From an uncultured delta proteobacterium (GTDB taxonomy: Bacteria; Desulfobacterota; Syntrophobacteria; Syntrophobacterales; Syntrophobacteraceae), in the NCBI GenBank assembly GCA_963808625.1, contig CAWEHK010000023.1, positions 1 through 64,000 on the forward strand: a stretch of 64,000 bases of DNA, written 5' to 3'. Shown here piece by piece: positions 1-13,981 of the stretch. The translations under genes and the position numbers were made by a program. The notes beneath the pieces are model-generated. The model was given only the letters and a program-made list of their open reading frames with translations. It searched no databases and was not told the DNA's origin. Each line of letters begins with the position of its first letter. Position 1 is the first letter of the stretch.

Positions 1-660
1 GCCTTCGAATACCGGAGTGATCACCATCTTGGCGATCTCTTCGCGGAGTCTCGCCAAGTCAGGTTCCGAGGACTTGTTCTGACTGGCGGTGATGGTGATA
101 CTGTGAAGGCGGTAGGGGCTTCGGTTCCGGTACTCGATGCCCACATCGATTTTCGCTTCGGGAGCCAGATACGGGAGTCTCTTCTGCCTTCTGGTCAGGG
201 TATACTGCCGGGCAAGATCATGGGCCAGGCACACGGGAAGAGGCATGAGCTCAGGGGTTTGATTGCAGGCGAAACCGAAAACGGTCGCCTGGTCCCGGGC
301 GTGAATCCCCTCGATTTCCTCCTCGCTGAGTTTGTGTTCGTCGAAGCAACACCAATCGTCGGCCGGCATTTCCTGCAGACTCGTCAGGATGCTGCAGGTT
401 TTCGAGTTGAAATCGGCCTGGTCGTAGCCGACCCTCTGGATGACTTTCCGGGCGATGGTCGGGAAGTCGACCACCTCATCCGATGCGAACCGCGCGGCAA
501 TAAAGACGATGGAGGATGAGACGGCACACTCGGCGATGACTCTCGAAAGGGGCGCCTGCTCCAGGAAATGGTCCACAATCGCGTCACTGATCTGATCGCA
601 CAATTTGTCCGGATGCCCTTCGGTCACGGAGGCAGAACTGAAGACGAAATCTCTCTTCAT
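1..660 (-). CDS. metK: Divergent S-adenosylmethionine synthetase paralogue (3' end runs off window)
   Basis: Not in the ORF track; translated by hand from ATG 660: MKRDFVFSSASVTEGHPDKLCDQISDAIVD...RVIAECAV...VFGFACNQTPELMPLPVCLAH...PEAK. The start overlaps the ATPase stop (ATGA). Confidence 0.9.
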   Translation of the reverse strand, partial: MKRDFVFSSASVTEGHPDKLCDQISDAIVDHFLEQAPLSRVIAECAVSSSIVFIAARFASDEVVDFPTIARKVIQRVGYDQADFNSKTCSILTSLQEMPADDWCCFDEHKLSEEEIEGIHARDQATVFGFACNQTPELMPLPVCLAHDLARQYTLTRRQKRLPYLAPEAKIDVGIEYRNRSPYRLHSITITASQNKSSEPDLARLREEIAKMVITPVFEG

Positions 661-3600
661 GGTTTGACCCCTTGCGCGGTGGTTTTGGTGGCTTCGTTGA
701 CGAGCAGAGGAAGCAAGCTGGAGGCTCCGATCACGGCGCCGTCCAGAACGCTGATGGCGCCGATTCCCAAGAGGTTTCGCAACCCGGGAACGATCATGGT
801 CAGCAGCTGGAGCAGCAGTGACCCTGACAGCGCCAGGTTGAGATAGCGGTTCGGGGGGAGCTTTTCCTCGCTGAAGATGCTGTGGGTTTCCGAGCGGCAG
901 CTCACGGCATGGAGCAACTGTCCCAGGGTGAGGCTCTGAAAGGCCAGGCTGTTGGCCCTGGCCCCCATGCCGTAGCGGCTGATCCCGTAAGCGTAAGCGC
1001 CCAGGGTGCTCGCGCTGATGATCGAGGACTCGAAGGTGATTCTCTTGAAATCCGACTTCCGCACGATCGGCTCCTCGGGATCGCGCGGCGGACGCTGCAG
1101 CACGTCGGGCTCGGGAGGCTCGAGGGCGAGGGCGAGGCCGGGAAAGATGTCCGACATGAGATTGATCCAGAGCAGCTGCATGGCCGTCAAGGGGTAGCCG
1201 AGGCCGAGGGCGCCGGCGAAAAACATGACCATGATTTCACTGAAGTTGGTGGACAGCAGAAAGTGGAGTGCCTTCCTGATGTTGCTGTAAATGCTTCGGC
1301 CATGGCCTACCGCCACGATCATGGTTTCCAGATTGTCATTCTCGAGGATGACATCGGCCACCTCGCGAGCCATGTCGGTCCCGGTGTTGCCGAGGGCGAC
1401 TCCGATATCGGCGGCTTTCAAGGCTGGGCCATCGTTGATTCCGTCGCCCGTCATGGCCACGATCCGCCCGCTTTTCTGGAGGGCCTGAACGATCTGCAGC
1501 TTGCTGGCCGGACTCACCCGGGCAAAGACGTCAATCCGTTGGGAAAGCGCCCGCAGAGCGTCGCTATCGATGTTGGTGAGATGGCTTGAGTCGAGAATCT
1601 CCAGGGGATCATCGTTACTCAGGTTCAGTTCTTTGCCGACGGCGTAAGCCGTTGCCGCTTGATCGCCGGTGATCATGATGGTGGCGATGCCTGCCTCATG
1701 AAAGCGCGAAATCAGCTCCTTGACCCCGTCTCTGATGGGATCCGCCATTCCGACCAGACCCAGCCAGGTGAGTCCTTTCTCAAGCTCCGCACCCTCGCCG
1801 TCAGGACCGATATAACAGGCGAACCCGAGGCACCTTAACGCCTCGCCGGCCATGCGCTCGTTTTCGGTTTCGATGCGGTTTCGGTCCTCTTCGGTCAAGA
1901 ACAGTTCCTCGTTGCCCTGGATGTGGCGGTCGCACATTTCGAGCACTTCGAGGGGGCTTCCTTTAAAGGCGACGAGGATTTGGTGGTCTTCGGCTCGATG
2001 GAGGGTCTCCATGAAGAGACGGCTCTCCGAGCGGTAGTTGGTTTTCAGCAGGGGATACTGCTTTCGCAGTTCGGCAATATCGACTCCCGCCTGGATGGCC
2101 ATGCGGATGAGAGCGGTCTCGGTGGACGAGCCTTCCAGGAGAAGCTCTTCACCACTCCCGCTGATTTCGGTCTCATTGCACAGGGCGGAAACCCTCATCA
2201 GTTGCAGCATTTCGCCGCAACTGCCGGGGTCGATGGGGCCGGCCTTGGAATGGAACTGCCCGTCCGTAAGTTTCACCCGCTGCATGCCGGCATAAACCTG
2301 CTGGACCGACATCCGGTTTTCGGTCACCGTCCCGGTCTTGTCGAAACAGATGGTTTGGACCGCCCCCAGGGTTTCCACGGCGTCAAGGCGGCGGATCAGG
2401 ACATTCTGCCTCGCCATGTTCTTGATACCCAGGGCCAGGGTCGTGGTGGCGACCGCCGGGAGGCCTTCCGGAACGGCTGCCACCGCGAGGGAAATGGATA
2501 TCTTGAACATCTCCAGGAACCCCTGACCGCGGATAAGCCCAATCACGAAGACCAGCCCGCAGACCGCCCCGCTGATTCCGACCAACTGGTTCCCCATCAG
2601 GCTCAACTGCTTCTCCATGGGGGTTTCGGGAGCGGTGGCTTCCCCGACCAGGAGCTGAAGCTGCCCCATTTCCGTATAGCTTCCCGTGGCTACCACAATG
2701 GCGATCCCCTGGCCGCCGGTGACGAGGGTGCCCATGAACACCATGTTGAGTCGGTCGGCGAGCGGGGTGTTTTCGGGCTTGATCGCCAGGGCGTCCTTGA
2801 CGACCGGCAGGCTCTCACCGGTCAGCACCGACTCGTCGACACTCAGTTGGGTCGCCTCGAGCAGCCTGCTGTCGGCGGCGACATAGCTTCCCGGCCGGAG
2901 GACGAGAAGATCTCCGGGGACGACCTCGTGCAGTTCAATGTCCACTACGCCGTTATCGCGAACGACCTGGGCCCTGGGATGAACGAGGTTCTTGAGGGAC
3001 TCGATGGCGCGTTCGGATTCGTTTTCCGTGACATAGCCGATGACGGCATTGAGGCCGACCACACCCATGATGACGACGGCGTCCGCAATCCCGCCGGTGA
3101 AAACCGAGATTCCCGCGGCGACGCCCAGCAGGGCTACGGGAAGGGAATTGAACTGACTGATAAAAATGCCGAACCGGGAGCGTGAAGCGCATTCGGGGAG
3201 AGCATTGGGTCCATGTCTGCGGAGCCTTTCGTGGGCAGCCCCGAGGGTCAAGCCCGAGGTTTCCGAGGTGCTCAAGGCTCGGGCTACCGAACCTGCGTCC
3301 ATGGCGTGCCATGTAGCATGTGTTTGGGGCTCGTAGGCGAAGCGAAGCTTGAGGTCTTCGAGCCTCTTCCGCACCCTGGAGGAAGGCTGAAGGTTATCCG
3401 TGGTTATTGGGGGTGGGCTGGTTGTTTTGAGGTCATGCCGAGAAGCCGGTCCTACCGGATGCCGTTCGTCGGCTTCATGCGCAGCCTGGCCAACCAAAGC
3501 GGTGATGTGCAAAGCGATGGCTTCGGGAGTGTTGCCGTTCTCATGGTCATAGATGACGAGGAGATTGCCGGTGAGGAAGCTGGCAGAGGCGAGTCTTATT

Positions 3601-3746
3601 TCGCTCCTCAGGGAGAGTCCCGCCTCAAGGCGCTGCTTGATGGCTTCGCATCGATAGAGTGCTCTTACCCGGTATCGCACTCTCCCTTTTACCGCAGCAT
3701 GGATGACTTGAATCGTAGGGCCTGGCGTTCGACCGGGTGCGTCCAT
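657..3746 (-). CDS. P-type cation-transporting ATPase (P2A/Ca-ATPase-like) with N-terminal HMA2-like domain
   Basis: TGES, AVPEGL, DKTGT, KGSP, MITGD and TGDGINDGPAL motifs; C-terminal LWINL..DIFPGLAL; N-terminal IHAAVKGRVRYRV...TGNLLVIYD. Confidence 0.95.
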   Translation of the reverse strand: MDAPGRTPGPTIQVIHAAVKGRVRYRVRALYRCEAIKQRLEAGLSLRSEIRLASASFLTGNLLVIYDHENGNTPEAIALHITALVGQAAHEADERHPVGPASRHDLKTTSPPPITTDNLQPSSRVRKRLEDLKLRFAYEPQTHATWHAMDAGSVARALSTSETSGLTLGAAHERLRRHGPNALPECASRSRFGIFISQFNSLPVALLGVAAGISVFTGGIADAVVIMGVVGLNAVIGYVTENESERAIESLKNLVHPRAQVVRDNGVVDIELHEVVPGDLLVLRPGSYVAADSRLLEATQLSVDESVLTGESLPVVKDALAIKPENTPLADRLNMVFMGTLVTGGQGIAIVVATGSYTEMGQLQLLVGEATAPETPMEKQLSLMGNQLVGISGAVCGLVFVIGLIRGQGFLEMFKISISLAVAAVPEGLPAVATTTLALGIKNMARQNVLIRRLDAVETLGAVQTICFDKTGTVTENRMSVQQVYAGMQRVKLTDGQFHSKAGPIDPGSCGEMLQLMRVSALCNETEISGSGEELLLEGSSTETALIRMAIQAGVDIAELRKQYPLLKTNYRSESRLFMETLHRAEDHQILVAFKGSPLEVLEMCDRHIQGNEELFLTEEDRNRIETENERMAGEALRCLGFACYIGPDGEGAELEKGLTWLGLVGMADPIRDGVKELISRFHEAGIATIMITGDQAATAYAVGKELNLSNDDPLEILDSSHLTNIDSDALRALSQRIDVFARVSPASKLQIVQALQKSGRIVAMTGDGINDGPALKAADIGVALGNTGTDMAREVADVILENDNLETMIVAVGHGRSIYSNIRKALHFLLSTNFSEIMVMFFAGALGLGYPLTAMQLLWINLMSDIFPGLALALEPPEPDVLQRPPRDPEEPIVRKSDFKRITFESSIISASTLGAYAYGISRYGMGARANSLAFQSLTLGQLLHAVSCRSETHSIFSEEKLPPNRYLNLALSGSLLLQLLTMIVPGLRNLLGIGAISVLDGAVIGASSLLPLLVNEATKTTAQGVKP

Positions 3747-3901
3747 CTTCCCTTCAGTTACCGTTCCATTGAGATCGATATTCCTGCAGTCGCTGCATTA
3801 CAGCGATTTTTGACATCTCCCGTCTGCGTATCACGGGTATGTTAGCCAGGGTTACAGCTTTGTTACGTTTCGAATGCTGTTTGCTGTAGGCTATTCCCGG
3901 T

Positions 3902-4615
3902 CTAGGCCGCCCGCTTCTTGACGTCCGGAGCCTTCTCTTTTTCCACGTGGGTCGGGCTGCCTGACACCTTGGGCTCAGGTCCGCCGCTTGCCGGGGTTTC
4001 GGCGTCCGCGGCCGAACGCGCGCGGGGAAGCGCCGTGCCGGCAAGCTGCTTGACGCCTTCCACGGTGCCGACCAGGACCTCCCTGACCGCCTTCACCGCG
4101 CTGCCGCCAATGGACCCGGCGGCATCTATGGCGCCGCCCACGGTTACCTTGGCAACCTCTTCCACATTGGCTCCCGTTTCCTTGGCCGCTTCCAGGATGC
4201 CGTCCACTGCTCTCCTGGCGACCGAAGCCACGTCAGCCCCGACCTCGGAGGCCCCTTGGACGGTGCCTTTGATCGTCTCCCGGGCCACCGACAGGATGTC
4301 GCCACCCACGTCGCTCACACCCATGACGATGCCCTTGGCCAGGCTTTTGGCGCTCAATAGCAACCCGGTCCCGACCTCTTCGGTAGCGGTGATGGCCCCT
4401 TTCAGGACGTCTCTGGTCACGGCAATGGCGTCACCGGCCACACTTCCCGTGGCCTTCAAGGTGTCGCCAACGGTGTTCCTCACCACATCCAGGATCTCGG
4501 TCTCTATCTGGTAGATTCCCTTCAGGGTGCCGATCACACCGTCTTTCACGGTCGTTCCCGCCGCTCCCAGCCTCTCTTTCAAATCACTGCCGCTTGCCGA
4601 CTCTTGATCCGTCAT
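3902..4615 (-). CDS. Hypothetical Ala/Gly/Val-rich protein with about 8 tandem 22-aa amphipathic repeats and a low-complexity tail
   Basis: ATG 4615 has RBS AAGGGAGG. Repeats include VRNTVGDTLKATGSVAGDAIAV, ARETIKGTVQGASEVGADVASV and ARRAVDGILEAAKETGANVEEV. Confidence 0.85.
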   Translation of the reverse strand: MTDQESASGSDLKERLGAAGTTVKDGVIGTLKGIYQIETEILDVVRNTVGDTLKATGSVAGDAIAVTRDVLKGAITATEEVGTGLLLSAKSLAKGIVMGVSDVGGDILSVARETIKGTVQGASEVGADVASVARRAVDGILEAAKETGANVEEVAKVTVGGAIDAAGSIGGSAVKAVREVLVGTVEGVKQLAGTALPRARSAADAETPASGGPEPKVSGSPTHVEKEKAPDVKKRAA

Positions 4616-4643
4616 GTCGCTCCTCCCTTTCCCAGCCGTTAGA

Positions 4644-5147
4644 CTAGGCTGTTGTTGAGTTGTCAGAGCCTTCACTGTCCTTGGTTGACTGAACGTTCAA
4701 AATAATGCTCGATGCGTACCAGAAGGCCGTGTACCATGCCGGGGCGACAAAATTGCCGATACTGAGCTGATACATACCGGCCCCGATGAGGCCTAAAAAA
4801 ACAAGGCTCGGAATGTCCAGTTCCCCCTTGGTGGCAGCTCTGACTTGGTCGTCCAAATGCCGAAAGGAGGCGATCACCCGCTGGTTCAACGTCGCCTTGC
4901 GGGGTGTTGGTGACTGAGGTTGGACGAGACCGAACCTGATTGCCATCTGCTTGAGCGTAGCGGCGTCAATGCGATGCAGCAGGAGCACACTGCCGGTCAC
5001 CGGGTTGACCTGCACCTGGTCAATACCGGGGTAGCCGGAGAGGAGTTCCTTCAAGCCGCCGAAGAAGGCTGCATCGCCCTTTTTCGAGGGGATCTTCACC
5101 CGCAGACGATGGGGCGTCTGATGAGTTACGAAAGCTTCAGGAAGCAC
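4644..5147 (-). CDS. HMA2-like domain membrane protein
   Basis: HQTPHRLRVKI...QVNPVTGSVLLLH followed by a C-terminal hydrophobic segment LGLIGAG...APAWYTAFWYA. Confidence 0.8.
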   Translation of the reverse strand: MLPEAFVTHQTPHRLRVKIPSKKGDAAFFGGLKELLSGYPGIDQVQVNPVTGSVLLLHRIDAATLKQMAIRFGLVQPQSPTPRKATLNQRVIASFRHLDDQVRAATKGELDIPSLVFLGLIGAGMYQLSIGNFVAPAWYTAFWYASSIILNVQSTKDSEGSDNSTTA

Positions 5148-5449
5148 TGGGCCCGATTCCCGCCCCTTCCGCCGGCGCCGCGGGAGAGGTTACGGAGGCG
5201 TCCACAATTCCAGCCTCGTCGTAAAGCTCGGCCTTCACCTCCGCGGCAAGGTCCTCGAACAGCTCTTGAGCCTCGGCGATCATCTCCTGGCCTTTTTCGT
5301 ACAGCAAGAATCCCTCCCTTGAGACCGGCTTTGATCAAGGGTTTGGCTGCAGCTGCCAGGACCGGCACAATCACGGGGGCGAGGATCACGGCGCCGATGC
5401 CGATGACGAGGCCGGTGCTGACGCGAAACCCGTTATCAAAAAGTGCCAT
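5137..5449 (-). CDS. DUF5132-like small membrane protein (single +1 frameshift near 5305)
   Basis: GLVIGIGAVILAPVIVPVLAAAAKPLIKAGLKGGIL continues in the shifted frame as LYEKGQEMIAEAQELFEDLAAEVKAEL to TGA 5137, which overlaps the next GTG start. Confidence 0.75.
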
Positions 5450-5584: not shown

Positions 5585-5695
5585 TCGAGTGACCATTTTT
5601 GCGTATTTCTTTCATTACTTTCCTCTAATATTTCGCAAAATGTGGGCGTGAGGGTTCATCATCGTCAAAAATCACCGGACCAGGGAGTATGCGCT

Positions 5696-6097
5696 ATGAA
5701 CACAGACCTGATCGAAAAAACAAAGAGGACGGCGGAGCTTTATTTTGAAGGGGTTGCAGATGAAAGGCCCTTTGACCTGTGGAGAGCCTTCGACCCTGAA
5801 CTTGCTAGAGACTTGTCTCTTTTTATCACGGGGCAGATGTACGGCAGGGAAAAGATACCCCACACCACCCGCCAGCTCATTACCATTGCCTGCCTTACCG
5901 TGCTCGGCAAACCCGACGAACTGAAACTTCATCTCCACGCAGGCCTCAATGTGGGATGTACGCCGCAGGAGATGGCTGAAGTGATCTTTCAGTCTGCCGT
6001 TTATGGAGGAATACCGGCAACCAACGTGGCGCTGAAGACGTTGAGACAGGTGCTGCTCGAAAAGGGCGGTGGCCGGCAGATTGATTTCCCAGTTTGA
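5696..6097 (+). CDS. Carboxymuconolactone decarboxylase (CMD) family protein
   Basis: TRQLITIACLTVLG...LKLHLHAGLNVGCTPQEMAEVIFQSAVYGGIPA. Confidence 0.9.
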   Translation: MNTDLIEKTKRTAELYFEGVADERPFDLWRAFDPELARDLSLFITGQMYGREKIPHTTRQLITIACLTVLGKPDELKLHLHAGLNVGCTPQEMAEVIFQSAVYGGIPATNVALKTLRQVLLEKGGGRQIDFPV

Positions 6098-6235
6098 CGC
6101 CGGAGGGTGCGCCGCTGCCATAAAGAGTCGTGCCAGATCAACCTGTTCAGCCGGTGCCCGGGATGCCCGCAGAGGTCGAGTGAAGTACTGAAAGCGATCC
6201 AAGAACCGGCGATTTAGGCTCCTGCCGGCTCTGCA

Positions 6236-7730
6236 TCAGTTGGGCAGCGTTAACCTCATTGCCTTGGCAATTTTCTTCGCCACATCGGTGTTGTCATAGA
6301 ACCCGTTAAAAGCGCCGGCAGTGTAACCGTGAGCGAGGACCGGCACGGGCACGCCGGTGTGAGCATAACTGGTCCAGGCGATGCCTGCCTTATTGTTGAG
6401 AATATGAGTGATGGTCACCGTCAACGGCGTGTAGCTGCCATAGAGCAGGGCATCTTCTTCGGGCAGGTTCGGGGAAGTGCGGCCGAGGCTCTTGTCGTAG
6501 GCATTTTCGAGTCGCAGCTTCTCGAAGTTGTTGAGCGTTGTGTAATCCAGTCCGAAGAGGGTCGTTGATCTGCGTTTTCAGAGCGTCCTCGAGGTCGGCC
6601 GGGCAGCCGGCGCCACATGCCGTCTTATAGGTGTTCCAAACCTTATCGAATTCGACGTAGCTCATCTTCTGATTTTCGAGTTTTTCGAAGTAGGAGGCGT
6701 AGGCGGTGCCCGCCCATCCGATGGTCATGCCGCCGGTTTCATGATCGCCGGTGACGACGATGAGGGTGTCCCAGGGATGCTTGTACATGAACTCGAGAGC
6801 CACCCCGATGGCATCATCGAAAGCCACCATGTCATCGAAGGTTGTGCGGGCGTCGTTGGCATGGCACGCCCAGTCCACTTTGCCCCCCTCGACCATAATA
6901 AAGAACCCCTTGCCTTTCTCCAGGAGGCTGACGGCCCTCGAGGTGAACTGGGCCAGGGTGAGGTGGTTGCCTGCTTGAGCGGGATCGTTGGACACTGCGT
7001 ATGTGCGGTCGATGTCGTAGAAGAGGGCCTTGTCGTTCTTGAGGTCGTCGAGAACCGGGTTGATGGCAATGGCTTTCTTGCCGGGCTTGAGGGCGTCGAT
7101 TTCGGCCTTGGTGTCAGCAACGACGTATCCCGCCGCCTGGGCAGCGGTGATCACGTTTCCCAGGGGACCATCCACGGCCTTGAAACCGCCACCGCCAAAG
7201 AAGTCGAATCCGCTCGCGTAGGTCTGGTGGCCAATGTTGTGATAGCTGCCGCGCAGGGGCTCATGAGCATAAAAACAGGCCGGGGTGGCATGGTCGATGG
7301 AGACGCTCGAGATGATGCCCACCTTCATGCCGGCGGCTTTCGCCTGCTCGGCGATGGTTGTATAGGGGACCGTTTTGGTGGGGTCCATGGAAATGACGCC
7401 CTCGGCCGTCTTCTTGCCGGTGGCAAGCGCGGTGGCGGCGGGGGCAGAATCGGTGATATAGCTGTTGTAGGGGAACGTCGTGCACATTCCCTGGACGGAA
7501 AGCTTGCTCATTCTGAGCAATTCGGCCTTGTCAACTCCGCCGACTTCATCCCTTTGGACCTTGTTGGCCAGGTAAGCCTCGGTGGCATTGATCTGGACGC
7601 TCGCCATGCCGTCCCCGATGAACAGAAATACATACTTGGCGCGTTCAATAGCCTGAGCCGCACCCGCGGTCATGAAGCAGACGAGAGCTGCCAGACTGAC
7701 AGTGATGAACCATTTGTTGGTGTTCTTCAT
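6236..7730 (-). CDS. phoA: Alkaline phosphatase, secreted (single +1 frameshift near 6560)
   Basis: Signal peptide; IGDGM, TDSAPAATA, HATPA, VEGGKVDWACHAND and TGDHETGG motifs. The C-terminus LFGLDY...YGSYTPLTVT...WTSYAHTGVPVP lies in the shifted frame. Confidence 0.9.
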
Positions 7731-7952
7731 CTTCTTCTCCTTAACGATCAATAATAAATTCGATCAGTTCGTTCAAACCACAAAAACTCCTGCACAAACT
7801 CCTTTTCTTGCGCCTCCTTCCCCGGCTACCCCGCTGGACCGGGCCACTGGGGTTCCGCACCTGTCAACTCATTGTTTCCCCGTGATTTCTTCTCATGTGA
7901 ACCAGCACAGATAAAATGCCAATGGAATCTGTCGAGAACCTTATGAGCCTTT

Positions 7953-7980
7953 TGTTACGTTTTGGTGAAGGGAGTGTGAA
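7953..7980 (-). promoter_or_regulatory. PHO-box-like triple direct repeat
   Basis: Minus strand TTCACA / TTCACC / GTAACA at exact 11-bp periodicity, upstream of phoA. Confidence 0.55.
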
Positions 7981-8211
7981 ATATTAGTGCAGTCGGGCAG
8001 TCTTGACTGAGGGCGAGAAAATTCAGTTTGAGATATTCCCGCGATCCTCTATATACCAAATTGTATTCTTAAATGCGCCCAACCGCGAAGGTTAAATGGC
8101 GCTCAGTATTCGGAACCCCAAAGCTGCAAGGCTTGCCCGAGAACTTGCGGCAGAGAGCGGAGAAGACCTGCTCCAGCAATTTCCTAATTATCTACAGGAG
8201 AGCTTCATCGC

Positions 8212-10269
8212 ATGAATCGTTTCTTTGATGCAAAAAGCGTGGTTGTGGTTGGGGTTTCGGCTTCTCCGCTGAATCTGGGGCGGGCGATGGTGCTCAATCT
8301 CCTGGAATTTGGCTATACGGGATACATCTACGTGGTCGGACCGAAGGGCGGGTCCTTCCTGGGGCATAAGATCTATCCCGAGGTAAAGGACATTCCGGAA
8401 CCAGTCGAACTCGCAGCCATTTTGGTCCCGGCCCCCGCCGTTCCCGAAGTCCTGCGGCAGTGCGGAGAGAAAGGGATCCCGAGAGTGGTGCTGGAGTCTG
8501 CGGGGTTCAGGGAGCTCGGTCCGGACCGCCTCGCCCTCGAGGACGAGGTTCGGGAGGTCCTGAAGCACTACGGAATGCGGATGATTGGTCCCAATGGCCT
8601 CGGCATCATCAATCGGCGGACCGGCCTCGCGGTGCCCTTCATGCCGTTTTCGGCCAGAGCCCCTCTCGGCAGGATCGCCGTGATCGCCCAAAGCGGCGGC
8701 GTCGGGGCGATGATGATCAACATGCTTGCCGCCGAAAACCTCGGCTTCAGCAAATTCGCCAGCATCGGCAACAAGCTGGATGTCAATGAAACCGACCTGG
8801 TGGAATACCTGATCGGGGATGACGAAACCGACGTTGTCTATGCCTATCTCGAGGGCATAACCGAAGGGCGCCGGCTGATGGAGATCGCCTGCCGTTCCTC
8901 CAAGCCAGTTGTCATCCAGAAGTCCAACCTGGGGCGGTCGGGAGCGCTGATTGCCCGCTCGCATTCGGCCTCCCTCTCGAACGACGATCAGGTCGTGGAC
9001 GCCGCCTTTCGCCAATGCGGCGTCATCCGCAGCCGGGAACAGCGGGAAACGATGGAAATCGTGAAGGCTTTTTCCCTTCCGCGGATGCGGGGGAACCGCC
9101 TGGCAATCATCTCCCGCTCGGGCGGGCACGCCGTTCTTGCCGCCGACGCGGCCGAGGAGTTTGGCTTTCAGTTGCCTGCCTTTCCTCCGGAAGTGCTTGG
9201 CAAGGTGCGGGAACATTCGCGGGCCGGGGTAATCGACTTTCATAATCCCCTCGATCTCGGGGACCTTTTCGATCTGGCACTCTACCGCGCGCTTGCAGAA
9301 ATGACCCTGGCGCGGGAGGACATCGATGGCATGGTCTTCATCCACAATTACCAGGGGGATATGGACGTTGAGGCGTCCCGGAGTCTCATCGTGAGCCTTG
9401 GCGCGCTGCTCGAGAAGGTTCGAAAACCGATCGCCATTTGCGTGTTCACGACTGACGATGAACTTCAGATCAACCGGGAGGCTGCCAACGTTCCCATCTT
9501 CACTGATCCAAGGGAAGCGGTCCGCTCTCTTGCCCGGACTCGAGACTACCATCGGAAGCACTTCCTGCCCTTTTCCAAGACCCGGCCCGAGCGGCTCGAC
9601 CGGGACAGGGCCCGGGTTGAGCTCGAAACCGCCGCCTCTGGCCCCATGGCTCCCGATAAACTGGCCTCGATCCTCTCGGCGTATGAAATCCCTCTGATTG
9701 CATGGCAGATGGCGGAAAATGAAGACGATGCTCGGCGCCTTGCCCGCAACCTGGGTTTCCCGGTGGTCCTGAAGACCGCACACCCGGAGGTAATCCACAA
9801 GAGTGACGCCGGCGGCGTGGTTCTCGACCTTGCCGACGACGATGCGGCAAGCCTGGCGTACCGGGGTTTGACGCACTTTGGGCCGCGTGTTGTGGTGCAA
9901 AAGATGTCACCGCCTGGTCTGGAATGGCTGGTTGGAGGGCGCCAGGACCCAAATTTCGGTCCGGTTGTCGTGGTCGGTCTGGGGGGAATCTATGTGGAAG
10001 TTTTCAGGGAGACCACGCTGCGTATCGCCCCCATCGACGATGAAGGGGCGCAGCAGATGATGGAAGAGTGCCGAGGATCGCTGCTGCTTCGAGGGGTGCG
10101 TGGGCAACCGCCTCTTGACGAACAGGCCCTCCTTGAGGTAATCGTCCGCGTTTCATGGCTGCTGGCTGACTTTTCGGAGATCCGGGAGCTTGACTTGAAC
10201 CCTGTACGTGTTTTCCGATCCGGGTGCCTCGCGCTCGACTGGCGCGCGGTGCTGGGGGGTGGCTCTTAG
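8212..10269 (+). CDS. ADP-forming acyl/acetate-CoA ligase family protein (fused alpha/beta)
   Basis: CoA-binding N-terminus, IGPNGLG, AQSGG, SIGNKLD, SHSAS, NPLD, HKSDAGGV and ELDLNPV. Confidence 0.93.
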   Translation: MNRFFDAKSVVVVGVSASPLNLGRAMVLNLLEFGYTGYIYVVGPKGGSFLGHKIYPEVKDIPEPVELAAILVPAPAVPEVLRQCGEKGIPRVVLESAGFRELGPDRLALEDEVREVLKHYGMRMIGPNGLGIINRRTGLAVPFMPFSARAPLGRIAVIAQSGGVGAMMINMLAAENLGFSKFASIGNKLDVNETDLVEYLIGDDETDVVYAYLEGITEGRRLMEIACRSSKPVVIQKSNLGRSGALIARSHSASLSNDDQVVDAAFRQCGVIRSREQRETMEIVKAFSLPRMRGNRLAIISRSGGHAVLAADAAEEFGFQLPAFPPEVLGKVREHSRAGVIDFHNPLDLGDLFDLALYRALAEMTLAREDIDGMVFIHNYQGDMDVEASRSLIVSLGALLEKVRKPIAICVFTTDDELQINREAANVPIFTDPREAVRSLARTRDYHRKHFLPFSKTRPERLDRDRARVELETAASGPMAPDKLASILSAYEIPLIAWQMAENEDDARRLARNLGFPVVLKTAHPEVIHKSDAGGVVLDLADDDAASLAYRGLTHFGPRVVVQKMSPPGLEWLVGGRQDPNFGPVVVVGLGGIYVEVFRETTLRIAPIDDEGAQQMMEECRGSLLLRGVRGQPPLDEQALLEVIVRVSWLLADFSEIRELDLNPVRVFRSGCLALDWRAVLGGGS

Positions 10270-10322
10270 CTCTTGGCTCTTGGCGCTTGGCCCTTGGTTG
10301 TCAGCGGTTGGCGGTTGGCGGT
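10267..10322 (+). repeat. Heptamer tandem repeat (GCTCTTG / GCGGTTG type)
   Basis: tagctct tggctct tggcgct tggccct tggttg... directly after the stop codon. Confidence 0.55.
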
Positions 10323-10498
10323 CAGTTTTTCTGTTAAATTCTTATTGTACATTGGGGAGTGATTCTGTTATCAACATACGCCAAGATCAGGTTCGGGAAA
10401 GGGGGGATAAGGTATTGTGAGTTAAGGGAAAATGGTAAATCAAGTTACGTTTTTGAGGAATGACGTTAAGCGCGATAAGAAAAGTTTGAGGAGGAAAA

Positions 10499-10795
10499 AT
10501 GATGAGACAGAACAAAAAACTGGTCTATGCGTTGGTTATTGCTTTCGTTTTTTCCTTTGCCTTTGCGATATGCGTGAAGTCGGCCTCGGCGGCGGATGAG
10601 GAAGAGACCATTGCCGGGACCGTCGTTAAGACGGATAAGGGTATCGTCATCGAAGCAGAGGATGGGGATTATATCGTCAAGGGGAAGGACCTCTCAAAAA
10701 TGGTCGGCAAGATGGTCGAAGCTACCGGCAAGATTACCGAAAGTGACAAGGGTGACGTGATTGATGTGACGTCTTTCGAGGAAATCCAGGAATAG
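10499..10795 (+). CDS. Small exported protein, probable OB-fold
   Basis: RBS GAGGAGG, signal peptide ending ASA-A, and beta-rich TIAGTVVK...VGKMVEATGKI. Confidence 0.8.
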   Translation: MMRQNKKLVYALVIAFVFSFAFAICVKSASAADEEETIAGTVVKTDKGIVIEAEDGDYIVKGKDLSKMVGKMVEATGKITESDKGDVIDVTSFEEIQE

Positions 10796-10825
10796 ATGAT
10801 TCCCGGAGGCAAATGAGCGTTTTGA

Positions 10826-10886
10826 CACAGGTACGCACGATGACGCGGTTTGTGCTTCCTTCGACGGTGCGTGCCTGTGGCTTTTC
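10826..10886 (+). terminator. Inverted repeat, possible terminator
   Basis: CACAGGTACGCAC...GTGCGTGCCTGTG followed by GCTTTT; the loop is unusually large. Confidence 0.35.
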
Positions 10887-11006
10887 CATGCGGTGGAGCT
10901 CAGGGCTCAGGGGTCGGAAGGAAACTTGGGACAGGCAAGGATTTTATTCTCGATTGAGGTGAAACCCCCAAAGATTGAACTCATCACCTGACAGGGAGCC
11001 AAGAGC

Positions 11007-12350
11007 ATGCAAGATAGCCTCTTCCTTGAAAAGGGCACTGGAACTCCAGATGAAGAAGTTGAACCTCCGAGCAGACCTGCTTGTGCCACCGCGGTTCCCA
11101 GGCTCAATCTCGTTCCGCACTCTTTGCCATCGGCCTGTCAGATTTCGGCAGAATCATTGGATCACGGGGACTTGCGGCCGGAGTTCCAGGGTGGTGCGGA
11201 CCCCTTTCTGGTCAGTCCCATTGGCGATCATTTCCGAAGAAGATTTTACCCAACCGCGACGAACAGCGATTGGAACGACTGGCGCTGGCAATTGCATCAC
11301 CGCATTCAGGAGCTCGATGAATTGGCGCAAATCATCGAGCTCTCCGATGACGAACGTACCGCTATCGCCAATTATCAAGGGCACCTGCCCCTTGCCATTA
11401 CGCCCTACTATGCCAGCCTGCTCGAGGCGAAGAACCCCTTACAACCCCTGCGCCGCACGGTGGTCCCGGTAAATGCCGAATACTGCCGTACCAACGGAGA
11501 AGCGGAAGACCCCCTGGGTGAGGAAAATGACACTCCGGTCGCGGGAGTGGTGCATCGCTATCCGGACCGTGCGCTCTTTTTGGTCACCGGTTTGTGTTCC
11601 ACCTACTGCCGCTACTGCACACGGTCGCGGATGGTAGGCAACAGCAATGGATACCGCTTCAATGAGGACGGTTGGGAGCAGGCGATTGCGTATATCGAAA
11701 AGACGCCTGCCATTCGCGACGTGCTCCTCTCGGGCGGCGACCCCTTGACCCTGTCCGACAGGAAGCTCGAATGGATCTTATCGCGGTTGAGACGCATTCC
11801 CCATGTTGAATTCCTCCGCATCGGGACCAAGGTCCCCGTGGTTTTGCCGCAGCGCATCTCCCTGGCCCTGACCCGGATGCTGAAACGATATCACCCGCTA
11901 TGGGTGAGCATCCATGTCACCCACCCCGCGGAGTTGACGCCGGAGGTAGCGCAGGCCTGCAGTCGGCTGGCCGATGCCGGAATCCCCCTGGGCAGCCAGA
12001 CGGTCCTGCTCTCCGGGGTGAACGATAACGTCGCGACGATGAGGGAGCTCTTTCGCGGCTTGCTCAGAATGCGGGTTCGGCCCTACTATCTCTATCAGTG
12101 TGATCCCATTCCGGGTTCATCCCATTTCCGGACGCCGGTCGAAAAGGGGCTGGAAATCATCCAAGGTCTTCGCGGCCACACAACTGGTTACGCAGTTCCT
12201 ACCTACGTGATCGATTCCCCGGGAGGCGGTGGGAAGATTGCCCTGCTGCCGGAACACGTGGCGGGGAGGGACGGTGATGAGCTCCTGCTGCGAAACTATC
12301 AAGGCGAAATTTATCGGTATCCTGATCCGAACGGGAGCGTGGCACGATGA
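11007..12350 (+). CDS. kamA: KamA-family radical SAM aminomutase (lysine 2,3-aminomutase-like)
   Basis: HRYPDR, CSTYCRYCTR, LSGGDPL, SQTVLL.GVND, PYYLYQCD and YVIDSPGGGGK (PLP lysine). Confidence 0.93.
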   Translation: MQDSLFLEKGTGTPDEEVEPPSRPACATAVPRLNLVPHSLPSACQISAESLDHGDLRPEFQGGADPFLVSPIGDHFRRRFYPTATNSDWNDWRWQLHHRIQELDELAQIIELSDDERTAIANYQGHLPLAITPYYASLLEAKNPLQPLRRTVVPVNAEYCRTNGEAEDPLGEENDTPVAGVVHRYPDRALFLVTGLCSTYCRYCTRSRMVGNSNGYRFNEDGWEQAIAYIEKTPAIRDVLLSGGDPLTLSDRKLEWILSRLRRIPHVEFLRIGTKVPVVLPQRISLALTRMLKRYHPLWVSIHVTHPAELTPEVAQACSRLADAGIPLGSQTVLLSGVNDNVATMRELFRGLLRMRVRPYYLYQCDPIPGSSHFRTPVEKGLEIIQGLRGHTTGYAVPTYVIDSPGGGGKIALLPEHVAGRDGDELLLRNYQGEIYRYPDPNGSVAR

Positions 12351-13345
12351 GGGTGGGGATCACGTATGACCTTCGTGATGACTACCTTGCGCTGGGGTTT
12401 GGAGAGGAGGAAACGGCCGAATTTGACCGCCTGGAAACCATCGACGCCATCGACCACACGCTCCAGGCTCTGGGGCACAGCATCGACCGGATCGGGCACC
12501 TAAGGACCCTGGTGGAACGCCTGGCCGGCGGTGACCGCTGGGACCTCGTTTTCAACATCGCCGAAGGCCTTCACGGATACGGGCGCGAAGCCCAGGTGCC
12601 GGCGCTTCTGGATGCCTACGAAATCCCCTATACCTTTTCTGATCCGCTCGCTCTTACCATGACCCTGCATAAAGGCATGGCGAAGCATGTCGCTCGGGGC
12701 TGCGGTATTCCAACACCGGACTTTTTCGTGGTGAAATCGGAGTCCGATATTGCGAAGGTCGACCTGCCGTTCCCGCTATTTGCCAAGCCTGTAGCCGAAG
12801 GTACGGGGAAGGGTGTTACGGCCGCATCGAGGCTCTCCAACCGCCAGGAACTGGGATTTCAATGCACCAGGCTCTTGTCGGAATATCGACAGCCGGTCAT
12901 CGTCGAAACTTTTCTCCCCGGTCGGGAATTCACCGTGGGGGTCGTTGGAACCGGCGAGCAGGCGCGGGCCGTCGGGATCATGGAGGTGGTACTGAAGGAC
13001 CATGCCGAGCCGCATGCCTACTCCTATGTCAACAAAGAAAGGTGCGAAGAATTCGTTGAGTACCATGCTGTGGAGGGTGGTGTCGCAGAACAGGCCAAGG
13101 AGATCGCTCTTGCTGCCTGGCGCGTTCTCGAGTGCCGGGATGGCGGTCGCCTCGACTTGCGGGCCGACGCCGAGGGCCGGATTCATTTCCTGGAGGTCAA
13201 CCCGCTGCCGGGCCTGCACCCCGAACACTCCGATCTGCCGATTCTTTGCACCATGTCCGGCATTTCCTATCGAGAACTCATCGCCTGGATCATGGAATCA
13301 GCCATGGGACGGGTTAATGGTCAGTGGTTGGTGGCGAGTGGCTAA
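12347..13345 (+). CDS. D-Ala-D-Ala ligase-like ATP-grasp enzyme
   Basis: VFNIAEG, GREAQVP, KPVAEGTGKG, FLPGREFTVG, RLDLR and EVNPLPGL; coupled to kamA by ATGA overlap. Confidence 0.9.
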   Translation: MRVGITYDLRDDYLALGFGEEETAEFDRLETIDAIDHTLQALGHSIDRIGHLRTLVERLAGGDRWDLVFNIAEGLHGYGREAQVPALLDAYEIPYTFSDPLALTMTLHKGMAKHVARGCGIPTPDFFVVKSESDIAKVDLPFPLFAKPVAEGTGKGVTAASRLSNRQELGFQCTRLLSEYRQPVIVETFLPGREFTVGVVGTGEQARAVGIMEVVLKDHAEPHAYSYVNKERCEEFVEYHAVEGGVAEQAKEIALAAWRVLECRDGGRLDLRADAEGRIHFLEVNPLPGLHPEHSDLPILCTMSGISYRELIAWIMESAMGRVNGQWLVASG

Positions 13346-13460
13346 TGGCTGGTGACGAGTAGCTAATGGCTGGTGACGAGTAGCTAATGGCTGGTGACGA
13401 GTAGCTAATGGTTGGTGGCGAGTAGCTGATGGCTGGTGACGAGTGGCTAATGGCTGGTGG
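13320..13460 (+). repeat. 21-bp tandem repeat, about 6.5 copies
   Basis: Unit GCTAATGGCTGGTGACGAGTA (three degenerate heptamers), no spacers. Confidence 0.9.
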
Positions 13461-13485
13461 ATAGTGATCTCCACGAAATTACCCC

Positions 13486-13898
13486 CGTCATACCGGCGAA
13501 AGCCGGTATCCAGGCTACCCATCTGGATTCCGGCGTACGCCCATTGGCGTCAATTTAACCCGATGGAAGGCGCATCGTCGTTCACGATCAGGATGGTGCA
13601 TCTTTTTTTACCCCGAAGGGGTTGTATAGTTAAGCCCAGGGTCAGCTGAGCGCCACCCTGGGTATGGGTGCCCAGCAAGGATCCATACCCTGAAAGGGTT
13701 ACATAAAAAGGATTTCTCATAACAGATTCGGTTGCTCGCCATGGTTCTCTTTGATGTAACCCCTTCAGGGTAAAATGGTTTATGGCATCTCCTGACCCAG
13801 GGTGGCGCTACCGCTGACCCTGGGCTGACTTATGAAACCCCTTCGGGGTAGGTAGGGAATGCTTAAGTTGACGCGCATGGGCTTACGCCGGAATGACG
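13486..13898. repeat. REP-like palindrome interrupted by a MITE
   Basis: CGTCATACCGGCGAAAGCCGGTATCCAG...CTGGATTCCGGCGTACGC [insert] GCTTACGCCGGAATGACG. Confidence 0.75.
13541..13880. mobile_element. Non-autonomous MITE-like element carrying nested REP-like inverted repeats
   Basis: TIRs CCATTGGCGTCAATTTAA / TTAAGTTGACGCGCATGG, flanked by near-identical 8-mers GCGTACGC (13533-13540) and GCTTACGC (13881-13888). Internal inverted repeats at about 13609-13663 and 13794-13850. Confidence 0.7.
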
Positions 13899-13981
13899 CA
13901 GAGGGCTTTTGCGCTTTGTTGCGGCCCTCTGGATCATGGAAGTTAGTTGCTGGTGGTTTGGAACAGGGGTGAATGGGGCGG

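Follow-up and report, generated by a model that had tools for sequence, protein, structure and literature searches.

A conserved operon joining CoBaHMA proteins, a P2A-type ATPase and a MetK-like protein, with signs of phosphate control and a possible role in a calcium-phosphate compartment

At the beginning of the window, meaning the whole stretch of 64,000 nucleotides analysed here from an uncultured delta proteobacterium, lie five minus-strand open reading frames (Table 1) encoding, in order, a DUF5132 protein, a CoBaHMA (HMA_2) membrane protein, a 22-residue repeat protein, a CoBaHMA-capped P2A ATPase and a MetK paralogue. Their coordinates, confirmed as listed and with gene 1 reading 5449-5126 as sequenced, bear out the five co-oriented genes and two overlapping junctions described in an earlier note on this DNA. 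Gene 1 overlaps gene 2, and the ATPase and MetK-like genes overlap through an ATGA at 657-660, the remaining intergenic gaps being 28 and 155 nt; to judge by the ATGA, the MetK-like gene is translationally coupled to the ATPase gene. The motifs quoted in that note were also located, namely GLVIGIG, HQTPHRLRVK, HAAVKGRVRYR (aa 16) and AVPEGL (aa 424). The start of the window is the start of the contig, MetK being truncated at residue 220 with its remainder absent from the assembly. An alkaline phosphatase gene is found 0.8 kb upstream, within the window. The gene set is widely conserved yet unstudied in bacteria: literature searches returned no description of the operon, as the note had maintained for its function, and the paper on the CoBaHMA domain may already list the ATPase architecture.

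Table 1. Positions of the operon's genes, domains and candidate regulatory sites in the window
Feature	Position	Strand	Basis
MetK paralogue, first 220 aa	1..660	-	S-AdoMet_synt_N + _M; ATPase-coupled (ATGA overlap)
P2A-type ATPase, 1029 aa, TGES, PEGL, DKTGT	657..3746	-	Pfam Cation_ATPase_N + _C, site residues
ATPase N-terminal CoBaHMA cap (His then RxR)	3534..3704	-	PF19991 aa 15-71, E=1.3e-5
Pho-type direct repeat (hexamer pair, 11-bp spacing)	3851..3867	-	11/12 match, 106 nt upstream of ATPase start
Helical protein of 237 aa with 22/44-residue repeats, matching no Pfam family	3902..4615	-	periodicity, AlphaFold2
Protein of 167 aa with FezC-like architecture: CoBaHMA (HMA_2) domain, then hydrophobic segment at the C-terminus	4644..5147	-	PF19991 E=1.2e-17
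DUF5132 small membrane protein	5137..5449	-	PF17195 in frame 5334-5137
Promoter motif, non-palindromic, 16 bp, conserved, consensus TAGGYAAGTAATGAAA	5610..5625	-	34 distinct sites, 50 upstream regions

Gene 1 is frameshifted by one extra base near 5305-5313, so that the ORF as sequenced extends to 5126 and has no family match in Pfam, the DUF5132 match (24.9 bits against a cut-off of 25) sitting in the other frame. The gene is in frame in relatives, and the extra base is missing from the contigs of three of four public runs, the gap not being visible in the fourth. Hydropathy and charge give the protein a single hydrophobic helix with GxxxG, followed by an acidic Glu/Ala-rich helix, and a His-rich metal motif was found in none of 35 DUF5132 proteins. 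Complex prediction for DUF5132 (aa 1-82) and the ATPase cap (aa 1-90), each given as an alignment, scored 0.19 against a mark of 0.32. DUF5132 was found in one of 401 sampled Pseudomonadota genomes and on three Sinorhizobium plasmids, with no nearby pump on the two inspected. The domain of the second gene product, PF19991, has been equated with CoBaHMA (bioRxiv 10.1101/2024.07.07.602159).

The repeat protein has a period of 22 residues (z=10.5 against 300 shuffles), with a further signal at 44 (z=8.5), and is predicted by AlphaFold2 (pLDDT 87-93 across residues 91-180) to be a compact alpha-solenoid with a disordered tail. The 22-mer periodicity of the amphipathic scaffold proposed earlier therefore stands, but this description need not imply lipid binding because the predicted fold is a compact solenoid. 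Fold searches returned de novo designed helical repeats as best matches and no natural protein above Z 8.2, which does not show a new fold; the ESM Atlas gave unnamed clusters only, with DUF6781 as a weak lead at 0.76, and profile comparison found no relation between the repeat protein and DUF5132. Two apparent repeat-ATPase fusions were set aside, both resembling read-through or mis-joined calls.

The ATPase had been read as P2A-like and not P1B, and this reading holds: it carries PEGL and a P2A C-terminus, and scores 639 bits with TIGR01522 versus 233 with TIGR01525, without reaching the curated cut-off of either TIGR01522 or TIGR01116. Its best PDB matches are SPCA1 (E 5e-151), LMCA1 (2e-140) and SERCA (4e-120), and in the tree it occupies a long branch relative to three ordinary P2A pumps. 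The N-terminal cap matches PF19991 below the curated cut-off, with G11, R12 and R14 invariant in 36 homologues. The SERCA site II ligands E309, N796 and D800 are present together with DKTGT and TGES, and the full Ca site II occurs in the 34 type-A pumps compared, as far as the sequences reach. At site I, N768 and E771 are kept, T799 is replaced by Ser and E908 by Gln, the last comparison depending on a weak alignment of M8 to SERCA. All Ca-ATPases have site II, and the E908 position is occupied by Gln in PMCA (bioRxiv 10.1101/2020.06.23.166462). These residues suggest a calcium-type pump, Mn2+ or another divalent ion being possible; N768 and E771 are retained, unlike in PMCA, SPCA and LMCA1, and therefore the pumped ion is not settled. 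The operon pump thus shares site II with SPCA1, LMCA1 and SERCA, but differs from them in its CoBaHMA cap and in keeping N768 and E771 with Gln at E908. Some clusters hold a second pump, present in about 10 of 96 genomes, which lacks E309 and D800 and retains TGES and DKTGT (9 orthologues).

The MetK-like protein belongs to the fold family of canonical MetK, with which it shares about 40% identity, the catalytic His and the phosphate and metal ligands, but all four methionine ligands (E55, Q98, D238 and K269) are replaced. The window copy retains H14, D16, K17, E42 and K165, has a changed GAGDQG loop, and in the methionine pocket carries Arg in place of E55 and Met in place of Q98. E55R, D238H and K269R occur in 120/120 homologues, with Q98 mostly Leu, and the same 120 all keep H14, D16, K17, E42, D163, K165, R244, K245, K265 and D271. 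In a smaller set, the catalytic His14 and the phosphate/Mg/K ligands D16, E42, K165, K245, K265 and D271 (of which only H14, D16, E42 and K165 fall inside the window) are present in 33/33 (residue roles from PMC3853416 and PMC1282579). Among 35 divergent members, K165 is replaced by Gln in seven and the adenine-stacking F230 is variable, being Phe in 11. The label "degenerate" given to this protein at first is the wrong word, because the substitutions are a fixed trait of the family and the phosphate and metal ligands are intact; by its residue pattern the protein is re-specialised, not decayed. It forms a separate clade (support 0.999), and a canonical metK lies elsewhere in the same genome (C8:69791). 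Large and well defined, the clade takes in 3080 of the 7999 candidates scored when the threshold is set at E<=1e-120, the signature substitutions being verified only in the top 120. Databases name these proteins MetK because the TIGR01034 cut-off of 309.4 bits is exceeded by a full-length relative (376 bits), and matches in the ESM Atlas are likewise MetK clusters. A search for the gene on plasmids found none; cultured carriers include Chlorogloeopsis fritschii PCC 6912/9212, Calothrix PCC 7716 and Desulforhabdus sp. TSK. WP_016879532.1 from Chlorogloeopsis fritschii is one full-length member.

The objection that the five genes might not be co-conserved, raised in the earlier note along with a gene-neighbourhood search, fails because 27 of 72 repeat-gene loci (Desulfobacterota, Nitrospirota and NC10) hold all five, in the same order; partial sets occur in Pseudomonadota and cyanobacteria. 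In an order-wide sample, where kin are not independent, the MetK-like gene was present in 49/58 repeat-positive versus 2/37 repeat-negative genomes, and by coordinates 47 of 53 MetK-like matches adjoin the ATPase. Two observations count against the interpretation preferred below: in 31 of the 72 repeat loci the other four genes are all missing from the neighbourhood, and the inspected Pseudomonadota copies have no repeat gene. One cluster, in Microvirga VF16, has no MetK-like gene in 21 kb and two CYTH genes upstream; CYTH was found in none of the other loci examined. The wider gene set includes up to four CoBaHMA proteins and a Zn-ribbon protein, and in the window genome these companion genes lie within a Pho island (C39).

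Neighbouring genes and putative PhoB boxes point to phosphate control of the operon. Matches to pst, phoU, phoR or phoH-like genes accompany 16/27 full loci versus 6/45 others, the genes that recur nearby across 35 loci are pst, phoU, phoR, phoH, corA and olsB-like, with no feo or fur among those scanned, and phnDE adjoin a Pseudomonadota copy. The Pho-type direct repeat in the window has the orientation seen at the pstS-like and phoB-like genes of the same genome, where strong boxes number six genome-wide, near the counts at control spacings (3, 3, 1 and 5). Among relatives, boxes in the activating orientation precede pstS in 8/13 cases (shuffled maximum 2), the Zn-ribbon/CoBaHMA companion operon in 25/32 (shuffled maximum 1) and the repeat gene in 18/83 (shuffled maximum 4); ahead of the ATPase they occur in 0/41 relatives. 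Upstream of DUF5132, boxes face away from the gene in 13/46 cases and towards it in 7/46, and because the former orientation is commoner these boxes may drive a divergent gene or repress. A scan for three TTACA repeats did not recover the window site and gave 3 matches, against 4 for the null. Phosphate had figured in the earlier note merely as one condition listed for testing.

A further conserved element, the 16-bp motif upstream of DUF5132, stands in relatives mostly 7 nt ahead of a -35-like hexamer; the double Zn-ribbon protein is one candidate for its regulator. The window site is its top match genome-wide, in a scan that is circular for such sites, as the promoters it recovers had served to train the matrix. 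Scanning the phylum for this TAGG motif yielded six further DUF5132 promoters, only 6 of the 30 matches (in 27/301 genomes) preceding DUF5132; a phylum-wide signal was rejected, the reversed control giving about 37 (counted by eye). A leader peptide from the upstream ATG of the motif was also rejected, since frames differ and the ATG is altered in some sites (by eye).

The description of the operon as ferrosome-reminiscent stands as regards accessory genes of the Fez/PacL kind, but not as regards its P2A pump and its phosphate, not iron, neighbours; as judged from gene content, this is not a ferrosome operon. In fez clusters (FezA, FezB, FezC and FezH), FezB is a P1B-6 ATPase with D[Y/F]SCA and HNxxT, and ferrosomes form upon leaving iron starvation and are reported to contain iron phosphate. 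The operon resembles fez in the R-rich N-terminus of the pump and the small GxxxG membrane protein (Grant and Komeili, bioRxiv 10.1101/2020.01.10.902569), in R-rich HMA-like soluble and membrane proteins, in the occasional second pump with different membrane sites, in anaerobic hosts and in a tie to starvation for the stored nutrient. It differs in that the pump is P2A and has no D[Y/F]SCA (three matches in the window genome, none in ATPases), in having phosphate neighbours and boxes where fez has iron, in adding a MetK-like enzyme, a solenoid and a Zn-ribbon protein, and in that its organelle is putative. In PacL/Ctp effluxosomes (DUF1490), a P-type pump is encoded together with a small protein that has one TM helix, a Gly groove and a Glu/Ala helix, as here (PMC13043812, PMC13460109, bioRxiv 10.1101/2021.10.01.462712); the small protein of this operon, however, is DUF5132, not DUF1490 (Pfam), and has no His-rich motif, the pump is P2A, not P1B, and the partner genes are many more. 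The closest published DUF5132 + HMA_2 neighbourhood is that of Microcystis ccyA (calcyanin, amorphous CaCO3), where two DUF5132 and two CoBaHMA genes lie beside a calcium transporter (bioRxiv 10.1101/2024.07.07.602159; PMC8890360); no other paper naming DUF5132 was found in the literature searched, and the earlier note did not name this precedent. The operon differs in having no calcyanin, a primary pump where Microcystis has a Ca/H exchanger, a Pho link and a MetK-like gene.

Given its apparent link to the response to phosphate starvation, the gene set may build a calcium-phosphate store. The explanation we favour, tentatively and with somewhat less than even confidence, is a Fez-like membrane compartment wired to phosphate starvation, in which Ca2+ and phosphate would be deposited together and triphosphate would serve as substrate for the MetK-like protein. 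Under low phosphate, PhoB would activate the companion CoBaHMA genes along with those for the pump and the MetK-like protein. DUF5132 and the CoBaHMA proteins would gather the pump in a vesicle or a patch of membrane, in the way that P1B pumps are clustered by FezA/FezC and PacL, with the alpha-solenoid as an optional coat or scaffold. The pump would carry Ca2+ (or possibly Mn2+ or another divalent ion) into the compartment and, on the return of phosphate, calcium would be deposited with it, much as ferrosomes fill after iron starvation. The MetK-like protein would make no SAM and carry out the second half-reaction only (PPPase; PMC5512230), splitting triphosphate or short polyphosphate so that phosphate is provided or salvaged where the pump works.

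Efflux platforms of the PacL type are built from similar parts, which counts against a compartment. The main rival, unlikely in our estimation, is that a PacL-like DUF5132 stabilises or clusters a plasma-membrane P2A pump exporting Ca2+ or Mn2+ during phosphate starvation, no organelle being formed; such a platform would clear cations or load periplasmic phosphatases, with the MetK-like protein as an ATP- or phosphate-sensing partner. The PacL layout of DUF5132 (one TM helix plus a Glu/Ala-rich helix), the Ca2+-exporting role of characterised bacterial P2A pumps, the recurrence of TerC and CorA genes nearby and the upstream alkaline phosphatase gene are all in its favour. However, PacL systems are PacL/pump pairs, whereas here there are up to four CoBaHMA proteins and a solenoid, the sometimes present second pump with altered ion sites recalls large fez clusters with FezH, and the His-rich metal motif is missing from DUF5132.

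Lipid remodelling as part of the Pho response appears quite improbable. Here CoBaHMA would bind anionic lipids, as has been proposed for it, the pumps, above all the paralogue that lacks cation ligands, would move or sort lipids, and the MetK-like protein would make an adenosyl donor for phosphorus-free lipid chemistry. OlsB-like (7/35), PlsC-like (5/35) and GT21 (5/35) genes at the loci fit such a role, as does the loss of E309 and D800 from the second pump with TGES and DKTGT kept; yet the lipid genes occur in a minority of loci and may merely share a Pho island, the second pump is rare, and the main pump has a full Ca site II. A still fainter prospect is that of iACC-type calcium-carbonate inclusions formed without calcyanin, the P2A pump replacing the Ca/H exchanger. 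The same accessory families flank ccyA, as in Microcystis, and the MetK-like protein is present in the ccyA-bearing Chlorogloeopsis fritschii and Fischerella NIES-4106, but the operon has no (GlyZip)3 protein, a bicarbonate transporter is absent among the recurrent neighbours scanned, and the regulatory link is to phosphate. In particular, the repeat core, with its period of 22 and no Gly-Pro, contains no (GlyZip)3 with central Gly-Pro, and a crude pattern scan of the window genome (85% complete) found no calcyanin-length zipper. Least probable of all, the MetK-like protein would be an adenosyltransferase for a new anionic nucleophile, with pump and membrane genes serving its pathway (for example through metal supply) and the Fez resemblance incidental: its invariant Arg/His residues could just as well form the pocket for a new nucleophile, two acidic amino-group ligands having become Arg/His while H14 and the ribose ligand D163 stay, and the ATPase/MetK pair is the tightest link, but F230 is variable, no biosynthetic genes recur nearby and clusters without the MetK-like gene exist.

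Returning to the calcium-phosphate compartment, its fullest version, which we regard as doubtful, would make it a second class of Fez-like organelle: a PhoB-controlled Ca-phosphate store in which DUF5132, CoBaHMA proteins and a solenoid coat surround a P2A pump, served by a MetK-fold tri-/polyphosphatase misannotated as SAM synthetase in thousands of entries. Organelle or not, the MetK paralogue clade passes the MetK cut-off without the methionine pocket, and is thus a likely annotation error and a cheaply testable candidate for a repurposed enzyme. If the compartment is real, the Fez/PacL/CoBaHMA toolkit would be a general builder of ion compartments, redeployed around a P2A pump to handle calcium and phosphate, and the operon would provide a genetic handle on the Ca-P granules through which bacteria of sediments and wetlands influence the phosphorus cycle.

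The source genome of the window is 4.8 Mb in size and 85% complete, and the window spans the opening 64 kb of its contig C23. The five co-oriented genes claimed in the earlier note do lie together at the start of this contig, coding for a DUF5132 protein, an HMA_2 protein, a repeat protein with a 22-residue period (z=10.5) and no Pfam family, an ATPase, and a MetK paralogue that is truncated by the contig end, the canonical metK being present on contig C8. Gene 1 is frameshifted, with a hydrophobic GLVIGIG helix in the N-terminal frame and the DUF5132 match in another, while it is in frame in relatives. Among four public runs, three yield contigs without one base at position 5305, and the fourth does not show this gap. 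Since alkaline phosphatase, pstB and phoU are likewise split in this assembly, which suggests indel errors, the frameshift is likely an assembly error, with a strain-level pseudogene as a conceivable alternative.

Coordinates of the operon and of related features in the window, in other contigs of the same genome (C39, C48) and in fetched loci (L numbers)
Sequence	Position	Strand	Feature
Window	1-5449	-	Five-gene operon
Window	5334-5137	-	DUF5132 match of gene 1
Window	5610-5625		TAGG motif
Window	5642-6097	+	Divergent carboxymuconolactone decarboxylase-family gene, absent among recurrent neighbours
Window	6236-7751	-	Alkaline phosphatase gene immediately upstream of operon, frameshift-split
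Window	11007-12350	+	KamA-like radical SAM gene, presumed from CxxxCxxC motif and sequence
C39	80.7-111 kb		Pho island: pstS-like, pstC/A, pstB, phoU, phoR/phoB-like, phnX, phnW, phoH; also Zn-ribbon, two solo CoBaHMA genes, second pump
C39	97724-98065		Double Zn-ribbon protein (InsA-like + Top1-like), coupled to solo CoBaHMA gene
L075	19458-19760		As preceding line
C39	104.5-105.9 kb		Region whose orthologue abuts the operon 3' end in the closest relative
C39	107081-110278 (= L009:13082-16279)		Second CoBaHMA-capped P2A-derived ATPase
C48	1362-1950		Extended G homopolymer, likely a sequencing artefact
L044	7610-8272		EcsC-like and PHA-granule-region genes, recurring near cluster
L151	3211-4056		As preceding line
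L067	18779-19036		Small Cys-rich protein, no Pfam match; Pho-type box upstream in 16/17 copies
L276 (Microvirga sp. VF16)	5758-14820		CYTH, CYTH, two DUF5132, capped P2A pump, CoBaHMA, DUF445, CoBaHMA
L276 (Microvirga sp. VF16)	7811-7827		TGTCA repeats, pointing away from DUF5132

The operon is real and conserved. Of 80 genomes from the family, 58 encode the repeat protein and 57 DUF5132, and the repeat protein is missing from all 15 genomes of the order's two other families. At E<=1e-150, 51 of 96 genomes have the MetK-like gene, the ATPase adjoining 47 of its 53 matches. By a hand count in which related genomes are not independent, 49 of 58 repeat-positive genomes carry the MetK-like gene versus 2 of 37 repeat-negative ones. 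The expected co-conservation of the five genes was found in 27 of 72 GTDB loci with the repeat protein, all in the window's order; another 31 contain no member of the set but the repeat gene, and the remaining 14 are incomplete or truncated. Among metagenomes, the MetK paralogue is present in 14 of 80 loci, with a P2 ATPase beside 10 of them. Among named relatives, the closest to the repeat protein bears the title Syntrophobacteraceae, and record titles include this family, Desulfobulbaceae, Thermodesulfovibrionales, Ca. Manganitrophus, Nitrospira and NC10. The MetK-like protein is found in cultured cyanobacteria, and a Pseudomonadota family (L279, L294-L299) combines ATPase, MetK-like, CoBaHMA and DUF5132 genes without the repeat gene; DUF445 is found in 5 of these 7 loci. 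In some lineages, then as here judged from gene content, the repeat protein is dispensable. The repeat gene also stands alone in Burkholderiales and has extra copies in Nitrospirota (L121-L133), often preceded by the TAGG motif. One MetK-like protein (P0010) bears a C-terminal extension that is EcsC-like by eye, without Pfam match. No description of the gene set was found in the literature searched, most subscription papers lying outside its reach.

AlphaFold2, run on 50 sequences, gave seven helices for the repeat protein (mean pLDDT 76), with designed helical repeat proteins as best fold matches (TM 0.56, Z 17.4, rmsd 3.1 over 166 residues) and natural chains reaching Z 8.2 at most, which points to a predicted solenoid scaffold.

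The view that the ATPase is P2A-like rather than P1B agrees with its top family scores (PMR1-type and SERCA-type, both below cut-off, with P1B far lower) and with its best-matching structures (SPCA1, LMCA1 and SERCA). SERCA residues E309, N768, E771, N796 and D800 are retained, T799 being replaced by Ser and E908 by Gln. Because site II is reportedly universal among Ca-ATPases and Gln occupies position 908 in PMCA (bioRxiv 10.1101/2020.06.23.166462), Ca2+ is our best guess for the transported ion. The N-terminal cap is HMA_2, equated with CoBaHMA by Bruley et al. (definition in PMC8890360). In a 25-sequence tree the 22 capped pumps stand apart, across a long branch, from three P2A pumps of the ordinary kind, with a derived paralogue nested inside the capped group. 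This paralogue, the second pump on C39, is frameshifted near its end in this genome; it keeps TGES and DKTGT, has lost E309 and D800, and reads PSGL, PAGL or PTGL in M4. It occurs in about 10 of 96 genomes, directly after the MetK-like gene in some.

Ferrosomes are reported to arise from GxxxG and R-rich proteins with FezB, as membrane-bound granules formed on leaving iron starvation (bioRxiv 10.1101/2020.01.10.902569), and to contain ferrous phosphate (bioRxiv 10.64898/2026.06.16.732667); in effluxosomes, PacL is described as stabilising P1B export pumps within foci of the membrane. The accessory genes of the operon match the genes that cluster P-type pumps in these two systems, and the operon is as elaborate as the large fez clusters. 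It differs from Fez and PacL in pump class, in nutrient link and in the Pfam family to which its small protein belongs. The "ferrosome-reminiscent" label holds for the accessory genes and fails for membership: judging from sequence, the operon would resemble a Fez/PacL module in its working while belonging to neither. An efflux platform of the effluxosome kind shares this likeness and is the nearest competitor, possible although on the unlikely side, the elaborateness of the set arguing instead for a compartment.

Pho genes occur in 16 of the 27 full loci versus 6 of the 45 others, a comparison across loci of differing length. Genes that recur next to the operon in a set of 35 loci are pstS/C/B, phoU, phoR, phoH, olsB-like, plsC-like, corA and a Zn-ribbon gene. 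A putative Pho-type box, GTTACA-N5-GTTACA at a match of at least 11/12, has six sites in this genome (1 to 5 at control spacings), three of which precede, in the same orientation, the window ATPase, a pstS-like gene and a phoB-like gene (the latter two labelled from sequence and position, not HMM). In relatives, the box precedes pstS (8/13), the Zn-ribbon/CoBaHMA operon (25/32) and the repeat gene (18/83), counts which indicate that parts of the system very probably belong to the Pho regulon. It was found upstream of the ATPase in 0 of 41 relatives; upstream of DUF5132 it faces away in 13 of 46 and towards in 7 of 46. The double Zn-ribbon protein is present in 18 of the 27 full loci. In three phyla, by record title, the DUF5132 promoter carries the non-palindromic TAGG motif some 7 nt upstream of its -35 element. 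Lipid remodelling, to which the olsB-like and plsC-like neighbours could be related, appears improbable. DUF5132 and CoBaHMA genes are also reported to flank ccyA and a Ca/H exchanger in Microcystis, with partly shared expression (bioRxiv 10.1101/2024.07.07.602159); the operon does not appear to be a calcyanin locus, and carbonate inclusions are a slightly poorer prospect still.

The MetK-like proteins form a clade of 40 of 196 sequences (support 0.999); judged on a full-length relative, the MetK-like protein does pass the MetK model, but it fails on the methionine pocket. With numbering anchored on PDB chain 7ll3 (by sequence match to E. coli entries), D16, E42, K165, K245, K265 and D271, which bind phosphate and metal in MetK, do not vary across 33 operon copies and the best 120 homologues of a cyanobacterial copy; K165 and F230 vary in divergent clade members. 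In MetK, E55 and D238 are reported to hold the amino group of methionine, whose carboxyl group is bound by Q98 and K269; H14 is the catalytic acid, and F230 stacks on adenine (PMC3853416, PMC1282579). Every sequence in the same two sets has E55 changed to Arg, D238 to His and K269 to Arg, and Q98 is lost. Such uniformity does not fit the "degenerate" MetK proposed before, and the changes reflect selection for a new role rather than decay. Tripolyphosphate hydrolysis is described as also a normal MetK activity (PMC5512230). A new adenosyl-transfer pathway is the least credible reading.

Among named Alphaproteobacteria, one cluster was examined in full, that of Microvirga sp. VF16 (plasmid NZ_CP069355.1); in the 21 kb covered it has no MetK-like gene, and two CYTH genes lie upstream. 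CYTH proteins, often triphosphatases, are encoded in none of the other loci examined, and two Syntrophobacteraceae-family loci without MetK-like beside the pump also lack CYTH, so that CYTH in place of MetK-like stays a single, suggestive case.

We tentatively favour a Ca-phosphate compartment, since the gene set rivals large fez clusters in elaborateness, is tied to phosphate and includes an enzyme that would have retained phosphate chemistry alone; the existence of a compartment, the identity of its ion and the activity of the enzyme are inferences. The P2A pump would fill a membrane compartment with calcium, which would there be deposited with phosphate.
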